NCBI RefSeq assembly: GCF_053078305.1
Contig: NZ_CP166879.1
Strand: one strand, 5' to 3'
Length of the DNA: 64,000 bases
Shown: positions 9,986 to 39,312 of the stretch, in pieces
Layout of the letters: every line of letters begins with the position of its first letter
Numbering within the stretch: position 1 is the first letter of the stretch
The notes under the pieces: generated by a model
Seen by the model: the letters and a program-made list of their open reading frames with translations, nothing else
Told to the model about the DNA's origin: nothing
The model's database searches: none
Made by a program: the position numbers and the translations under genes

Positions 9986-10699
9986 TCACTGCTGCTCTCT
10001 GGTGGCGGTAATATCCCGGAGAATATCCCGGCACTTGTTCAGCTCCCGCAGAGCGGCACAGACTCGCTCCCACTTCTGAACCTGACCTTTTGCCCGGCGC
10101 AGCTCGCGGTTAGCCACATGCAGCGATGGTAGAATCAGGTCATCTGCTTTCGTTTCGGTGACCGATGGCTGTAACTTCACAATGTCTTCCACGATTTCTG
10201 TTTTCATTTCTTCCTGTGTTTCCGCTTCCCGGACTGGTAACGCAACACCTGCTGGCTGAGGAAAGGCTTTACCATCGTTTTTCTCTGCGGATGTAACTTC
10301 CAGCTCTGCTGGTAAATCAGCGCCCGGTATGCAGTAACGAAATTTACCGCCCTGATTCACGCGAATCAGACGCCCTTTGCTGATTGCCATGGCCAGCGAT
10401 GAATTCGCCCGGCGGGAGGTAATCCCGAACATCAGTGCCAGCTCATCCGCCGTTTGTGGGCCATGTTGTTCAATCGCCTCAGTCAGCATTTGCGCTGTCA
10501 CTTTCGGTACCGGTGACACTGGTTCACTTTCACCAGCCTGAATCAGCCACCACATCGACCCCTTGTTATCCGCTTCACCGCGGCGCTTCAGTTTCCACAG
10601 TTCGTTGACAGCATCTTCGCGGCTGATTCCAAGGCGCGATGCCACTACCTGTGAAGAGGCTCTTTTCAGTGCTTTCAGTGCGTCAAATACGGTTTCCAT
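9986..10699 (-). CDS. Hypothetical prophage protein (237 aa)
   Basis: ORF immediately downstream of the DnaC-like gene. Confidence 0.5.
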   Translation of the reverse strand: METVFDALKALKRASSQVVASRLGISREDAVNELWKLKRRGEADNKGSMWWLIQAGESEPVSPVPKVTAQMLTEAIEQHGPQTADELALMFGITSRRANSSLAMAISKGRLIRVNQGGKFRYCIPGADLPAELEVTSAEKNDGKAFPQPAGVALPVREAETQEEMKTEIVEDIVKLQPSVTETKADDLILPSLHVANRELRRAKGQVQKWERVCAALRELNKCRDILRDITATREQQ

Positions 10700-10728
10700 T
10701 AAAATTTCCTCCGGATAAAAATTACTTC

Positions 10729-11469
10729 TCAGTTCCTGTGCTGGCTGACGTTCGGACGCCAGCTCTCCCAGTTAAACGTCACCCAGCGACCACCGTTCAT
10801 GGACATGCGGTCCATCACCCGCTCGCCGAGAAGTGTATTCATCGCTGCATGGTTAAGATTTGTCAGCATCCCCACACTGAGTAACGATGCCGTTCTGCGG
10901 TCAACAATCTGATTCAGCGTGACCTGCTCATTACGCGTATCCCGTTGCATGCCAATTTCATCCAGTACCAGCAGGTCAACGCCACACAATCCCTGCAAAA
11001 ATTTTTCGCCCGAGTTTTTGTTGTCGTAGCTGCCATGTAACGCCAGCATCACATCCGCCACTGTTATCACAATCACACTGCGACCTTTCGCCAGAAGGTG
11101 GTTGCCAATAGCCGCCGCCAGGTGGTTTTTTCCTGTGCCAGGCCTGCCACTGAAAACAAAATTCGTACAGCCGCCTTCCAGCTCTGCCGCAATGGATTTC
11201 GCCTGACTCAGGGCATGGCGCTGACCATCGTTCTGCACCCGGTAGTTACCGAACGTACACTTCCGGTGAAGCGGCTGGATACCGGAGCGGTTAATGATTT
11301 TTTCAACCCGCGTCTGATGATTCAGACGATTAACCTCCTCGCTTCGCTTACGCCCTTCAGCAAGCTGCCATTCCCGCCACTCCGCCACCGTACGGTACGG
11401 AGGGATTGCATCCTGCGGCACAAATCTGCTGACTCTTGCCAGAACACCACCTGACGTAATGTTTTTCAT
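10729..11469 (-). CDS. DnaC-like helicase loader (IstB-type ATPase, lambda P functional analogue)
   Basis: 246 aa; Walker A GRPGTGKNHLAAAIG; Walker B LLVLDEIG. Confidence 0.8.
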   Translation of the reverse strand: MKNITSGGVLARVSRFVPQDAIPPYRTVAEWREWQLAEGRKRSEEVNRLNHQTRVEKIINRSGIQPLHRKCTFGNYRVQNDGQRHALSQAKSIAAELEGGCTNFVFSGRPGTGKNHLAAAIGNHLLAKGRSVIVITVADVMLALHGSYDNKNSGEKFLQGLCGVDLLVLDEIGMQRDTRNEQVTLNQIVDRRTASLLSVGMLTNLNHAAMNTLLGERVMDRMSMNGGRWVTFNWESWRPNVSQHRN

Positions 11470-11475
11470 GATGCG

Positions 11476-12465
11476 CTACCCCCTGAAACCCGGCGGAATT
11501 TCGGTATCCGGTTCAGAAATATGATTCACGCAACGCTGCGCGGGACCACGCCACAGTCGAATAACCAGTTCATCCCATTTCTCACGGAGTTTTTCCGGGC
11601 TCTTGATGTTTTTTATCCAGAACGGATCCCGTTGTGCCCGGCTGAACATTTCGCAAATTTGTCTGTGACTTCTTCCATCCAGCATCCGCATTGTGCGCAC
11701 GTCATTGGCCCACGCCGTCCAGTTGGGCTCTTTCGGTCGCGTGATCTCACCATCGTCACTGGCAGCCTGTTCGTACAGGTTTACAACCCGCCCCCAGATC
11801 CACTGCGCACACGTCAAATCCTCCCGGGTTCCCCACTGGCGTTTTTTCACGCTGAACACAACTGCATCAGGATGGCGGGTTAAAAACGCCTGTTCAGCCG
11901 TCAGCTCGTCCGGTTGCGAAGCGTCCGGACAAGAGAGTTTTTTATTCTCTGTTGTATTCTCTGTTGTATTCTCTGTTGTATTCTCTGTTGTATTCTCTGT
12001 AGGATCATCGGGCCATTTTGACCTGATGACATTGGGCCGTTTTGAACCAATGGAACGTTTCATTTTGACCTCTTCCATCGTGTCATTTTGACCTGATGGA
12101 GTGGCGCATTTTGACCCGATGGATTCGTTCACTTTGCCATCATCTAAAAGCGCGCTATCGTAGTTAATTGTGTAAAAATTAGTCATATCACGCTTCGATT
12201 TATTGAGCTTTTCGCTACGCAAAAGCCCCAGCGCTTTCAGACTTGCAAACGCACGCTTTAACGTTGACTCTGACCAGAACGGAAACTGTTCCAGCCATTG
12301 TTCCGTTGTGTTGTAAATCCAGCGAACGCCATCACATTCCATGCCGGAACTGGTATCCCTCAACCAGTAATGCAGTTGCTGCAACACAATGGCTTCGTTT
12401 AAACCAATCTTCATCGCCAGCTGTGTGTTTATAACCAGCGGGCGTTCAGCAAAAAGAAGGCTCAT
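11476..12465 (-). CDS. Replication initiator, lambda O-like
   Basis: N-terminal HTH-like segment; tandem repeats and iterons inside the gene as in lambda O/ori; ATG at 12465 preferred over the GTG at 12507. Confidence 0.7.
   Translation of the reverse strand: MSLLFAERPLVINTQLAMKIGLNEAIVLQQLHYWLRDTSSGMECDGVRWIYNTTEQWLEQFPFWSESTLKRAFASLKALGLLRSEKLNKSKRDMTNFYTINYDSALLDDGKVNESIGSKCATPSGQNDTMEEVKMKRSIGSKRPNVIRSKWPDDPTENTTENTTENTTENTTENKKLSCPDASQPDELTAEQAFLTRHPDAVVFSVKKRQWGTREDLTCAQWIWGRVVNLYEQAASDDGEITRPKEPNWTAWANDVRTMRMLDGRSHRQICEMFSRAQRDPFWIKNIKSPEKLREKWDELVIRLWRGPAQRCVNHISEPDTEIPPGFRG
11943..12000. repeat. Tandem 12-bp repeat TATTCTCTGTTG x 4.8, encoding (TTEN)n in the O-like protein
   Basis: Perfect direct repeats read directly in the sequence. 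Confidence 0.9.
12010..12125. repeat. Five iteron-like repeats (CATTTTGACC core, about 23-bp period); candidate replication origin
   Basis: Cores at 12014, 12038 (variant), 12061, 12084 and 12107. Confidence 0.6.
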
Positions 12466-12967
12466 AATTCCATCCGGCTTTTTGTTGGTACTGGTGACGA
12501 TAGGCACGCTTGAAAGCGATTGCTTTTTCTATAAGCTCGTCTGTCTCACGTTCCACAACAGCTGGATCTGCAAAAAGCAGCCCGGACTCCACCACATCGC
12601 CATATTCTTTGTTTAACCCGGCAATCATGTACGTAATGCTTTTTCCGTCAGTAATTTCGCGGTACAACCTGAAATCACTAATCCGGATAGCCTCCATAAT
12701 TGCCGGAATCAGCGCCGTGAATTTTTCTCGCTTATCCCTGGTGTCGATAGCCTTCCAGCGTTCGAATATCTTCACCCGGTTAACGCCAAGCGCACGCTGA
12801 TCAACCCCGCCATCATCAAGCGTGACACGCTGAACATCGATGTTCGGGCGTTCCTGTAGAGCCCAGAAGGCTTCAGTAATTAATATCGTCGCCTGCTCCT
12901 GCGTCATTCCTGGTCGGCTTATCCAGGCATCCAGGGCATCGCGTGCCTGCTCAAGGGTGATTTTCAT
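12446..12967 (-). CDS. Hypothetical protein between dicC and the O-like gene (possibly YdaT-like)
   Basis: 173-aa ORF; the family assignment is a guess from position. Confidence 0.45.
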   Translation of the reverse strand: MKITLEQARDALDAWISRPGMTQEQATILITEAFWALQERPNIDVQRVTLDDGGVDQRALGVNRVKIFERWKAIDTRDKREKFTALIPAIMEAIRISDFRLYREITDGKSITYMIAGLNKEYGDVVESGLLFADPAVVERETDELIEKAIAFKRAYRHQYQQKAGWNYEPSFC

Positions 12968-13181
12968 TGTTCAACCGCCCCGCCCGCTTCGTCTTACGAT
13001 ATTCGTCATAAACTTTGGGGTCATACTGAAGCTCCCCGCCGGATGCCTCTTGCAGGCGCATCGCGCGACCTTCAGGTACTAGCTCCCCTTTCCAGCTATA
13101 AAGCGAAGCCAAACGAATACCAGCAGCTTGTGCGAGTTTTGTTTTTGAACCGAAATACAAAAGTGCGTCAGTTTTAAGCAT
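12951..13181 (-). CDS. dicC: Cro-like regulator DicC
   Basis: 76 aa, divergent from dicA; matches DicC as I recall it. Confidence 0.8.
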   Translation of the reverse strand: MLKTDALLYFGSKTKLAQAAGIRLASLYSWKGELVPEGRAMRLQEASGGELQYDPKVYDEYRKTKRAGRLNNENHP

Positions 13182-13196
13182 TTAAAGCACCCTGAA

Positions 13197-13214
13197 TGTT
13201 AGTCATGACTAACA
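13197..13214. promoter_or_regulatory. Operator-like palindrome in the dicC-dicA intergenic region
   Basis: TGTTAGTCATGACTAACA, near-perfect inverted repeat. Confidence 0.5.
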
Positions 13215-13264
13215 AAATAGATGTTAACAAAAACATAGTCAATAAGATTTAGCATTAGCTAACT

Positions 13265-13672
13265 ATGGATACAAAAAATTTAACCATTGGCGAACGCATT
13301 AGATATCGCCGAAAAAGCCTCAAATACACCCAAAGGTCTCTTGCTAAAGCCCTGAAAATTTCTCATGTATCGGTTTCACAATGGGAACGGGATGACAGCG
13401 AACCGACAGGGAAGAATCTTTTTGCCCTCAGCAACGTACTGCAGTGCTCGCCAACATGGATTCTATTTGGCGATGAAGACAAGCAGCCATCACCACCTAT
13501 TGAGGAGCCAGTTGCTCTATCCCCCAAAGAACATGAGCTCCTTGAGCTTTTTAATGCATTGCCTGAATCAGAACAGGATGCTCAGCTCACCGAGATGCGC
13601 GCCCGAGTAAAAAATTTCAACAAACTCTTTGAAGAGTTATTAAAAGCCCGTCAACGAACAAACAAAAGATAA
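13265..13672 (+). CDS. dicA: Repressor DicA (XRE-family HTH)
   Basis: 135 aa; near-identical to DicA as I recall it. Confidence 0.85.
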   Translation: MDTKNLTIGERIRYRRKSLKYTQRSLAKALKISHVSVSQWERDDSEPTGKNLFALSNVLQCSPTWILFGDEDKQPSPPIEEPVALSPKEHELLELFNALPESEQDAQLTEMRARVKNFNKLFEELLKARQRTNKR

Positions 13673-13695
13673 CGCAATCAATGCGTTATCTTTTT
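13671..13695 (+). terminator. Possible terminator after dicA
   Basis: Stem AACGCA / TGCGTT followed by a T5 run. Confidence 0.35.
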
Positions 13696-13707
13696 GATCG
13701 CTAAAAA

Positions 13708-13760
13708 TGTTAGCCATAACAAACAAAAGCACTTGACCGGATTGTTAGTCATAGCTAATC
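13708..13760. promoter_or_regulatory. Two further operator-like half-palindromes upstream of the dicB operon
   Basis: TGTTAGCCATAACAAACA (13708-13725) and TGTTAGTCATAGCTAATC (13743-13760), related to the 13197 site. Confidence 0.45.
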
Positions 13761-13838
13761 TTACTTACATCAAGACACCGCACGGTGTTCTCAGCAAACA
13801 GTTCCGCTACCCCGGCGTTAAGGGGAAATGAGGTCAAC

Positions 13839-19600: not shown

Positions 19601-19690
19601 TGGTGGAGAGAGGGGGATTTGAACCCCCGGTGGAGTTGCCCCCACTCCGGTTTTCGAGACCGGTCCGTTCAGCCGCTCCGGCATCTCTCC
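19601..19690 (-). tRNA. serU: tRNA-Ser (anticodon CGA)
   Basis: 90-nt sequence GGAGAGATGCCGGAGCGGCTGAACGGACCGGTCTCGAAAACC...CTCTCTCCACCA. Confidence 0.85.
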
Positions 19691-38394: not shown

Positions 38395-39312
38395 TTAGCT
38401 CACCAATTGCCACTGCCTTTTTTCCATCACTGGAGAACTAATCACTGACATTAACAACTCTTTCACTGCCTGTGCCTGTGGCGATAAGTTCGCTCTGGCG
38501 GGTAAATTTAATGACAAAGAGAGACTCATGGAAGGCGTGGTAATGCGTGACATCCACCCATTTACTGCGCCACATAACGAACGCGCGGCCGATTCGGGTA
38601 ATACTGCAACGCCCATGCCGCTGGCAATCGCTGCGGTAAGCGTGGCAATAGACTCAATTTCACCAATGACTTTTGCCGTGAGCCGCCGTAGGGAAAACGC
38701 CTCATCAACACGAAGTCTAACAGCGCTGTAATCACTGGGGAGAAAAAGGTTCATTTGTGCAATAGCATTAACATCAACGCTTTGCCCCGGGCAATCTTGA
38801 GTTCCTACCAGGAAAAGATCTTCTTTCAGCAAAGCCTGACTGGATACCCCAGCCACAGGGGAATGCTCATAAATCACCGCCATATCGAGTTGGTGATTTA
38901 TCAGTTTTTCGTTAAGCACTGCACCGCTATTTTCATGAAGATAGATAACGATCTCCGGGAATTCAGCGCGAACCGCCTGTAATAAGGGCATGGTGATGGA
39001 TGACGCAGCGGTTCCTGGCGCAAAGCCAATCGAGACTTGCCCCGATAATGCCTGACCAACGTTATGCACCGCCAGTTGGGCCTGCTCACACTGACGTAAA
39101 ATGGCCCGCGCATGGGTATAGAGAATTTTTCCGGCGTCAGTTGGCGTAACGCCCCGTTTTGTGCGAATCAAAAGTTGTTGATTTAACTCACCTTCCAGTG
39201 TGGCAACCTGCTGGCTGAGCGCTGGTTGTGCGATATGCAATACTTCAGCAGCCTGGGTCAGGCTACCAATATCTACAATTTTTACGAAGTATTTAAGGCG
39301 TCTGAAGTTCAT
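38395..39312 (-). CDS. nac: Nitrogen assimilation control protein Nac (LysR family)
   Basis: 305 aa from ATG 39312, MNFRRLKYFVKIVDIGSLTQAA. Confidence 0.85.
   Translation of the reverse strand: MNFRRLKYFVKIVDIGSLTQAAEVLHIAQPALSQQVATLEGELNQQLLIRTKRGVTPTDAGKILYTHARAILRQCEQAQLAVHNVGQALSGQVSIGFAPGTAASSITMPLLQAVRAEFPEIVIYLHENSGAVLNEKLINHQLDMAVIYEHSPVAGVSSQALLKEDLFLVGTQDCPGQSVDVNAIAQMNLFLPSDYSAVRLRVDEAFSLRRLTAKVIGEIESIATLTAAIASGMGVAVLPESAARSLCGAVNGWMSRITTPSMSLSLSLNLPARANLSPQAQAVKELLMSVISSPVMEKRQWQLVS

Follow-up and report, generated by a model that had tools for sequence, protein, structure and literature searches.

A putative prophage replication origin within the linker code of an initiator gene carries tandem 12-mers conserved at the nucleotide level

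Results

The window analysed here is a stretch of 64,000 nucleotides (nt) of contig NZ_CP166879.1 (assembly GCF_053078305.1), and the subject of the analysis is a phage-type replication initiator gene within it, together with the short repeats that lie in the middle of its coding sequence. The gene is a minus-strand open reading frame (ORF) of 329 amino acids (aa) from MSLLF, which matched PHROG 391 ('replication initiation O-like') with an E-value of 6.7e-91, and a related E. coli genome has the same gene boundaries, annotated there as 'phage O protein family'. A previous reading of the letters alone (hereafter, the sequence-only reading) had proposed that this O-like gene contains a lambda-like replication origin, composed of 4.8 perfect copies of a 12-bp repeat, five iterons at about 23-bp spacing and an AT-rich stretch beyond the iterons. 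The positions of the features are collected in Table 1.

Table 1. Features of the initiator gene and its neighbourhood, in window coordinates
Feature	Position	Strand	Residues	Remarks
Initiator gene	11476..12465	-	329 aa	Four parts
N-terminal domain, predicted winged helix	12136-12465		aa 1-110	
Predicted disordered linker	11899-12135		aa 111-189	Encoded by the putative origin
Lambda-O-like C-domain	11551-11898		aa 190-305	
C-terminal tail	11476-11550		aa 306-329	Last ~24 codons
12-mer array	11941..12002	-	155-174	Five tandem units, ACAGAGAATACA x4 + ACAGAGAATAAA on the minus strand; also encodes (TENT)n
Iteron array	12014..12145	-	110-151	GGTCAAAATG (minus strand) in five good copies plus a degenerate one; semi-palindromic flanks GTCA-AAA-TGAC
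Inverted repeat	11905..11933	.	178-187	CTCGTCCGG / CCGGACAAG; 9-nt arms, 11 nt apart, directly past the 12-mers
AT-rich stretch named by the sequence-only reading	12140..12215	-		Encodes the end of the folded N-domain (..KRDMTNFYTINYDSALL)
DnaC-like helicase loader gene	10729..11469	-		PHROG 50, E 4.4e-79; NCBIfam PRK12377, 475 bits, above cut-off
YdaT/CII-like gene	12446-12967	-		Annotated 'toxin'
Cro-like gene	12951-13181	-		
CI-like repressor	13265-13672	+		

To begin with, Tandem Repeats Finder returned a repeat of period 12 at 11943-12000 (4.8 copies, 100% matches, unit TATTCTCTGTTG), exactly as had been claimed, and the peptide encoded by the array is PTENTTENTTENTTENTTENKK. A total of five matches to this unit with at most one mismatch were found in the window, all of them inside the array, against 0.21 expected, and none of 100 shuffled windows reached that number. 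In the register common to the family, ACAGAGAnTACw on the minus strand, four exact matches were found against 0.05 expected. Moreover, the array is the most AT-rich and most strand-skewed stretch (GC content 0.32, AT skew -0.76) and, according to a nearest-neighbour profile, the least stable duplex of the initiator gene, with 75-78% purines on the coding strand. Its 40-bp stability was about -46 kcal/mol and that of the AT-rich tract of lambda -45 to -47 kcal/mol, with a gene mean of -55 in both cases; the AT fractions were 0.65-0.70 and 0.70-0.75, and the fractions of coding-strand purines 0.75-0.78 and 0.68-0.80, respectively. No self-structure of single-stranded DNA (ssDNA) was found in the 12-mer array. 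As a separate observation, at 11930-11952 the core of the last 12-mer (AGAGA) is followed by an A-run and then by an inverted near-copy, CTCTCTTGT, with which it could pair in ssDNA; this near-copy is not kept in other lineages.

The iterons adjoin the 12-mers. Good cores of the CATTTTGACC type were located at 12014, 12038 (CGTTTTGAAC), 12061, 12084 and 12107, and a degenerate one (CACTTTGCCA) at 12130, with spacings of 24, 23, 23, 23 and 23 bp, which bears out the five iterons proposed before and adds a sixth. A scan with the iteron 16-mer was marginal when taken alone (4 matches vs. 1.2 expected, with 4 of 100 shuffles reaching 4), and the array was judged to be non-random because of its in-phase clustering and its conservation in relatives. 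Among 64 distinct relatives, the iteron cores were nearly invariant and the spacers variable, and these cores are the presumed binding sites of the N-domain of the initiator. The inverted repeat also falls in conserved alignment columns among the relatives. Furthermore, it was found (encoding SRPDASQPD) in Shigella phage VIT_AJPSC, which has another N-domain, other iterons and no 12-mers.

The structure of the initiator was modelled with AlphaFold2 on 110 homologues, which replaced a poor single-sequence model (predicted local distance difference test, pLDDT, of 42). Residues 10-110 and 190-305 were modelled confidently (pLDDT >90), and residues 111-189 were unstructured (pLDDT 37-62). As the repeats span residues 110-187, the entire repeat region corresponds to this linker. 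The stretch at 12140-12215 is AT-rich, as the sequence-only reading had stated (GC content 0.33-0.37 over 12140-12219), and its duplex stability is low, with no purine skew. However, several features speak against it as an origin element, namely that it lies upstream of the iterons in gene orientation, that it encodes folded protein (pLDDT 86-95) and that its synonymous conservation is not raised, the third-codon-position conservation (0.72-0.80) being that of ordinary coding sequence. This stretch probably does not belong to the core of the origin, and, judged from the sequence, the counterpart of the AT-rich region of lambda would be the 12-mer array and not 12140-12215.

The constraint on the linker-coding DNA was measured with 80 relatives from the IMG/VR database, of which 64 distinct sequences were aligned by codons. 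Third-position conservation was 0.63-0.87 in both domains and 0.90-1.00 from about 12150 to about 11900. In seven pairwise comparisons, synonymous change in codons for the same residue amounted to 4-13% for codons 105-190. For the domains on either side it was 17-60%, or 41-60% when only the four pairs with the greatest divergence are taken, which makes synonymous changes less frequent in codons 105-190 by a factor of 3-12. Amino-acid replacements in these codons were as frequent as elsewhere, or more so. The combination of few synonymous and many amino-acid changes argues for selection on the nucleotides and not on the peptide. The constrained interval coincides with the predicted disordered linker (residues 111-189), and the putative origin is central in the gene and codes for a non-conserved linker, as in origins of the pSK41 type.

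Beyond these relatives, conservation of the 12-mer, synonymous sites included, was found in dozens of species of Enterobacterales, Pseudomonas, Campylobacterota, Thiothrix and Bacillales, and the initiators of the distant phages share the N-domain only (44-54% identity). Klebsiella phage SopranoGao and Pseudomonas phage vB_PaeM_USP_18 have iterons spaced by 23 bp and then ACAGAGACTAC units, while Staphylococcus phage StauST398-3 and Bacillus phage proCM3 have units with an ACAGAGA core at the corresponding place. The family comprised 12,367 representatives at E <= 0.001. At the protein level, the motif TExT came right after the iteron-encoded segment in 61 of 104 cluster representatives of the N-domain (clustered at 50% identity), 39 of which had at least two such motifs.

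To separate DNA from peptide, one genome per species was taken and probed with the N-domain only, which gave 80 species-level loci, and TExT was sought in them at the protein level. In all of the 85 motifs found, Thr was encoded by ACA and Glu by GAG, and the codon of residue x started with A (85/85) and ended with T (84/85), the last Thr being ACA or ACT in 82. In the background of the same ORFs, the share of ACA among Thr codons was 26% and that of GAG among Glu codons 47%. The N-domain motif G-L-N-E-A..Q-Q served as a control in the same 40 loci, where the Gly codons were divided 13/10/9/8 and Glu was GAA in 21 and GAG in 19; such mixed codons at invariant residues indicate that synonymous sites are saturated at this depth. 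Regarding the nucleotides, positions 2-7 (CAGAGA) and 9-11 (TAC) were invariant in 92 out of 92 non-terminal units (9 of 12 positions), position 12 was A or T, and position 8, which sets the residue to I, N, T or S, was free. The units were retrieved by positions 1-7, so only positions 8-12 are unbiased in this count, and the unbiased test for positions 3, 6, 7 and 9 is given by the codon counts in the 85 TExT motifs.

The geometry was equally constant. When 46 species-level loci were aligned on their first 12-mer, the iteron period of 23 bp was maintained, and the distance from the start of the last iteron to that of the first 12-mer was 23 bp, as it is in the window. On the other hand, the iteron sequence itself changed with the lineage (GGTCAAAATG, GGGCAATTTGCCC, GGACAATTTGTCC, GTGCAAAATGCAC and GATCAAATTGATC). 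The constancy of the 12-mers while the iterons diverge implies an invariant reader, which could be an unchanging part of the initiator surface or a host factor of universal occurrence. From this codon-level evidence, the 12-mer is best read as a DNA element and not merely as a slippage-prone coding repeat.

The number of units was variable. Among the species-level loci, one had a single unit, 9 had two, 23 had three, 11 had four and one had five; three copies are strongly modal, and the five of the window lie at the top of the natural range. In complete E. coli genomes, 1,749 records had a full-length relative, and, by match length, an evenly spaced sample of them was almost entirely at 3 units. 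The E. coli copy classes were judged by match length among the 60 best-scoring records, one locus per class, except for five copies, being read directly: 2 records had two copies (L093), 7 had four (L095), 3 had five, with the same length as in the window (H138), 5 had six (L094) and 1 had nine (L092), while the remainder of these 60 had three (L002), the modal class of about 600 records. Alleles with 2, 3, 4, 5, 6 and 9 perfect copies were otherwise 97.5-99.7% identical, the identities being taken from BLAST as the ungapped comparison of flanks was uninformative because of indels. Lineages with imperfect units were almost always at three copies, and separate expansions were found in other lineages, with five copies in L016, four in L090 and P0032-38, and seven in P0030.

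The units are identical in the lineage of the window, and therefore the array slips, with the putative unwinding element and the protein linker both changing in length. The comparison of repeat number among related prophages, which the sequence-only reading had put forward together with the idea of a slippage site, thus revealed variation (2, 3, 4, 5, 6 and 9 copies). Of that idea, the variation from 2 to 9 in near-identical alleles holds, but the array is not merely a linker repeat, since its synonymous sites are conserved. By analogy with lambda, an effect in cis of a change in the number of 12-mers is more probable than one through the length of the linker.

Variation in the iterons was noted as well. 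In P0023-P0028 (E. coli relatives of 290 aa), an in-frame deletion of 31 residues (93 bp) joins 'SESIGSK' to 'WPDD'; this deletion corresponds to recombination between iterons, with about four lost and about two left, and provides natural variants of iteron number. Moreover, L011 and L068 come from the same IMG/VR source genome and represent two prophages with this type of origin, one having five 12-mers and the other three, and up to 4 matching places were found per E. coli genome. Cross-talk or incompatibility between such co-resident origins is possible.

Regarding the protein, the C-domain showed 37% identity to lambda O over 154 residues (BLASTP, E 5e-25; only residues 149-302 were aligned), and in a tblastn search aa 199-302 were 44% identical to many lambda-type O genes. 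The BLASTP alignment pairs the TEN repeats with the peptide encoded by the AT-rich tract of lambda. For the N-domain, the best structural matches given by Foldseek were 4pql and 5kbj, the N-domains of initiators of staphylococcal plasmids of the RepA_N family, and the model predicts a winged-helix fold of the RepA_N/DnaD-like kind. No significant Pfam family (E <= 0.001) was obtained for the initiator and 27 N-domain relatives, including Phage_rep_O and RepA_N (PF06970); the nearest result among the 27 relatives was DnaD_N in one member (E 0.098). The N-domain profile had no match among the sequences of solved structures. The earlier label 'O-like' is hence apt for the C-domain, which is homologous to that of lambda O, but not for the N-domain, a different winged helix that is predicted to be RepA_N/DnaD-like. 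As a side observation, many longer members of the family (440-880 aa; P0145-P0148, P0153, P0164, P0167, P0169, P0188 and others) have two tandem N-domains.

The tail (..EPDTEIPPGFRG) is common to otherwise unrelated initiators. It was matched at 13 of 19 residues by YdaU of Rac, and many O-like genes of Shiga toxin (Stx) phages matched the tail region with 95-97% nucleotide identity over only about 60 nt. In addition, the last 22 residues weakly resemble the C-terminus of DnaT (NCBIfam E 0.003, below the cut-off). The tail is retained even in relatives without a downstream DnaC-like gene, and it may serve as the peptide to which DnaC-type loaders dock, and marks a mosaic joint. The DnaC-like protein of the window was 75% identical to YdaV of Rac (BLASTP E 1e-143), and this loader is the presumed partner recruited by the C-domain or the tail of the initiator. 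Separately, in relatives of about 87% identity (L003-L008 and L011-L090, including phage mEp460), many lacked the DnaC-like gene, the initiator being followed by a DUF977 gene or by others. Apparently, this origin and its initiator can function whether or not the phage encodes a loader of its own.

The set of CI-like, Cro-like and YdaT/CII-like genes, the initiator and the DnaC-type ATPase corresponds to a lambdoid early-right operon. The YdaT-family gene overlaps the start of the initiator by 20 nt (12446-12465), which suggests translational coupling. Three tRNA genes (Arg-tct, Arg-tcg and Met/Ile-cat) lie at 982-1231, at the left end of the prophage part. A three-tRNA cluster of this kind sits upstream of stx in Stx phages, and no stx reading frame was seen in the first 1 kb of the window. 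The integration site is probably tRNA-Ser(cga) (19601-19690), and in the closest complete genome the prophage adjoins ompW instead. The annotation of E. coli 2012C-4431 was used as context, with only the central region being comparable and the tRNAs differing outside the early region.

Discussion

Overall, these results make it reasonably probable that a lambdoid prophage has its replication origin at 11900-12145, written into the code for the disordered linker of its own initiator, with the 12-mers as the element at which the strands are opened and captured. The earlier proposal of a lambda-like origin in an O-like gene is well supported on comparative grounds by the nucleotide-level constraint, by the coincidence with the linker and by the layout, and has to be amended, as its AT-rich element was misplaced, the 12-mer is more than a slippage-prone coding repeat and the N-domain is unlike that of O. 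According to the mechanism favoured here, the N-terminal winged-helix domain, with its RepA_N/DnaD-like fold, would bind the five to six semi-palindromic iterons, spaced by 23 bp, as a phased array. The duplex would then open at the adjoining 12-mers (sequence-specific, AT-rich and purine-skewed; five here, usually three), and one strand would be captured. Finally, the lambda-O-like C-domain and the C-terminal tail would bring DnaB via the DnaC-like loader. By analogy, the 12-mer array would correspond to the lambda High-AT-rich region and to the 13-mers of oriC and RK2.

Several observations weigh against this interpretation. First, 2-9 copies occur in genes that appear intact, which suggests either a loose constraint on the length or defects in some of the prophages. 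Second, TExT was found downstream in only 40 of the 67 loci with the N-domain motif, and many Neobacillus-type relatives have no clear 12-mer array. Third, the 12-mers are only about 67% AT, below the tract of lambda, and the other flank of the iterons also has a stretch of low stability. Furthermore, the absolute conservation of 9 out of 12 bases exceeds what ease of melting would need, and would fit a duplex site or an RNA signal equally well. Lastly, the searched literature yielded no experiment on origin activity, initiator binding or melting for this family.

The main rival, to which a minor but appreciable probability is assigned, is that the 12-mers are duplex sites for either the initiator, through a conserved surface, or a universal replication protein of the host, and that they position or regulate initiation (e.g. 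as a site for helicase or primase entry or for negative control), with melting taking place elsewhere. Nine invariant bases out of 12 are more typical of a recognition site, the 12-mers remain constant while the iterons co-vary with the lineage, and CTG, the start triplet of the E. coli primase, is present on the bottom strand of every unit. However, with a period of 12 bp neighbouring units would not face the same side of the helix, the array agrees with the melting region of lambda in position, skew and stability, and no known host-factor consensus was recognized by eye, no scan having been made.

It is improbable that the origin consists of the iterons and 12140-12215, with the 12-mers as a slippage-prone coding repeat that varies the length of the linker and has no role in cis. 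This would be in line with an array that is in frame, perfect, located inside the disordered linker and present in 2-9 copies, with the AT-richness and low stability of 12140-12215, and with the dispensability of the origin-encoded peptide in lambda and pSK41 (PMC6022878, PMC5703833). Nevertheless, the 12-mer does not vary from phylum to phylum at its synonymous positions, in contrast to residue x, and the array keeps its fixed 23-bp offset from the last iteron. Moreover, 12140-12215 shows ordinary synonymous divergence, encodes folded protein and lies on the wrong side of the iterons when compared to the AT-rich region of lambda.

Even less credit is given to the possibility that the conserved element acts in the transcript, as a translation signal for the initiator or a primer signal, or as the TExT peptide, instead of as origin DNA. 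Since the array lies within the gene, it is always transcribed and translated with it, and the TExT peptide is conserved, which the DNA reading takes as a by-product. However, no Rfam match was obtained for 10500-13800 (E <= 1) and the array forms no structure; a peptide role would leave the invariant synonymous sites and the free residue x unexplained, and the fixed phasing with the iterons points to DNA geometry. The least probable account is that no origin is present, the iterons being autoregulation operators or a partition or incompatibility site and the prophage replicating from elsewhere: in its favour, the evidence that ties the locus to initiation is comparative, and iterons can serve control as well as initiation, but the repeats lie in the linker of a protein with an N-domain of initiator-type fold and a lambda-O C-domain, beside a DnaC-like loader and in the position of a lambdoid replication module, an arrangement as in the proven origins of lambda and pSK41 (PMC6022878, PMC5703833).

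A wider claim can be put forward only tentatively, and is rather doubtful at present, namely that ACAGAGAnTACw is a universal, sequence-specific signal for strand opening or helicase entry in a very large family of origins with RepA_N-like N-domains, with either an invariant initiator part or a universally conserved replication protein of the host as its reader, and that slippage between 2 and 9 units tunes the firing of E. coli prophages. If so, thousands of origins, from phages and prophages of Gram-negative as well as Gram-positive hosts, would belong to the family, and slippage in E. coli prophages, including those of Shiga toxin-producing E. coli (STEC), would tune or switch origin firing and hence replication after induction.

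How the initiators of embedded origins open DNA is still unsettled, and the 12-bp element offers a clean handle on it, having nine invariant bases, being fixed in phase to freely diverging iterons and being common to phages of Proteobacteria and Firmicutes. It brings within reach of experiment whether DNA that serves for unwinding can at the same time be recognized by its specific sequence, and what its reader is; an example of a synonymous recoding of the 12-mer that keeps TENT is ACCGAAAACACC. The natural series of 2-9 copies in E. coli pathotype strains is a ready allelic series for asking whether prophage replication after induction depends on origin length. From a practical point of view, the element provides a signature by which origins can be annotated in thousands of prophages with an initiator that lacks any Pfam domain, and it is a warning that 'low-complexity linker repeats' of phage replication proteins can be DNA signals.

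Comparison with known replication origins

Origins embedded in the gene of their initiator are textbook cases, as in lambda and pSK41. The origin proposed here appears to be of this known kind, while the origin of this particular family and its 12-mer appear to be uncharacterised: the literature was searched for the 12-mer string, the N-domain motif and this type of origin, and nothing relevant was found, an absence that is no proof of novelty.

The likeness to lambda is extensive. In both cases the origin, putative in the window, occupies the central part of the initiator gene, with several iterons spaced by 20-24 bp within the coding sequence. In gene orientation, the iterons give way to a stretch of ~40-60 bp that is AT-rich and has many purines on its coding strand, and an inverted repeat comes next. 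In lambda, these are four iterons at 39034-39118, the High-AT-rich tract and the inverted repeat GTCAGAGAATTC/GAATCCTCTGAC; in the window, they are the iterons, the 12-mer array with an A-run, and the inverted repeat at 11905-11933, which is the positional counterpart of the one to the right of the AT-rich region of lambda. The AT-rich, strand-asymmetric region expected directly downstream of the iterons is thus represented by the 12-mer array. Furthermore, the C-terminal domains are homologous and the gene occupies the same pR-type operon position, after cro and cII-like genes. Stx-phage variants of the lambda-type origin have six iterons. The AT-rich region of lambda is strongly asymmetric in purines and pyrimidines between strands (PMC5043065), and in-frame deletions of 12 and 15 bp in its AT tract are origin-defective, even though the deleted O proteins still complement an O amber mutation in trans (PMC6022878).

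In contrast to lambda, the N-domain of the window is unrelated in sequence (no Phage_rep_O match) and the iterons are others, the partner is a DnaC-type AAA+ ATPase instead of lambda P, and the AT-rich element is made up of exact 12-mers that are conserved far beyond the lambdoid phages. No more than one unit resembling the 12-mer, TCAGAGAATTCT at about 39163-39174, is present in lambda. This sequence (L091 664-675; peptide SENS) is the left arm of the inverted repeat of lambda and resembles the 12-mer (cf. TCAGAGAATACA in L117); it may be a relic of the 12-mer element or may have arisen by chance.

A second likeness is with the RepA_N family. The window element differs from it in having no sequence match to PF06970, in being borne by phages and prophages and in being abundant in Proteobacteria, and, to our knowledge, no ACAGAGA-type 12-mer array has been described for pSK41. 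The N-domain of pSK41 Rep binds Rep boxes located centrally in rep, and the central domain encoded by the origin is a dispensable linker (PMC5703833). The Rep proteins of pSK41 and pTZ2162 share with the window initiator a winged-helix N-domain of ~110-120 aa, an origin-encoded linker of ~80 aa and a C-domain, the latter being host-specific in Rep (PMC5703833). RepA_N iterons are semi-palindromes converging on a poly-A tract, and the mechanism of these proteins has been described as unknown (PMC7145576); the iterons of the window, GTCA-AAA-TGAC, and those of its relatives (GGGCAATTTGCCC, GGACAATTTGTCC and GTGCAAAATGCAC) have the same build, A-tract included.

With the 13-mers of oriC and of RK2 oriV, the array shares the presence of short tandem repeats in an AT-rich region directly beside the initiator sites. 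Tandem repeats in the least stable stretch, adjoining those sites and conserved in sequence as well as in composition, were indeed found here. In the 13-mers, the exact sequence matters beyond the AT content, and the initiator captures one strand (PMC5043065). The window differs in that its period is 12 and not 13, the sequence is unrelated and the array is inside a coding region.

Finally, two mosaic relatives can be considered. The Rac prophage (ydaU-ydaV, oriJ) has in common with the window the DnaC-like gene, a neighbouring gene of the YdaT family and the last 19 residues of the initiator. The identification of the locus as oriJ/ydaU of Rac was rejected, as YdaU (DUF1376) shares these 19 residues only and ydaU has other repeats; sequence detail was absent from the oriJ papers. 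In Shigella phage VIT_AJPSC, the inverted repeat is found together with a C-domain and tail as in the window, but the N-domain is another one, the iterons are of another sequence and spaced by 15 bp, and there are no 12-mers. This pattern indicates two cassettes, one consisting of the N-domain, the iterons and the 12-mers, and the other of the inverted repeat, the C-domain and the tail.

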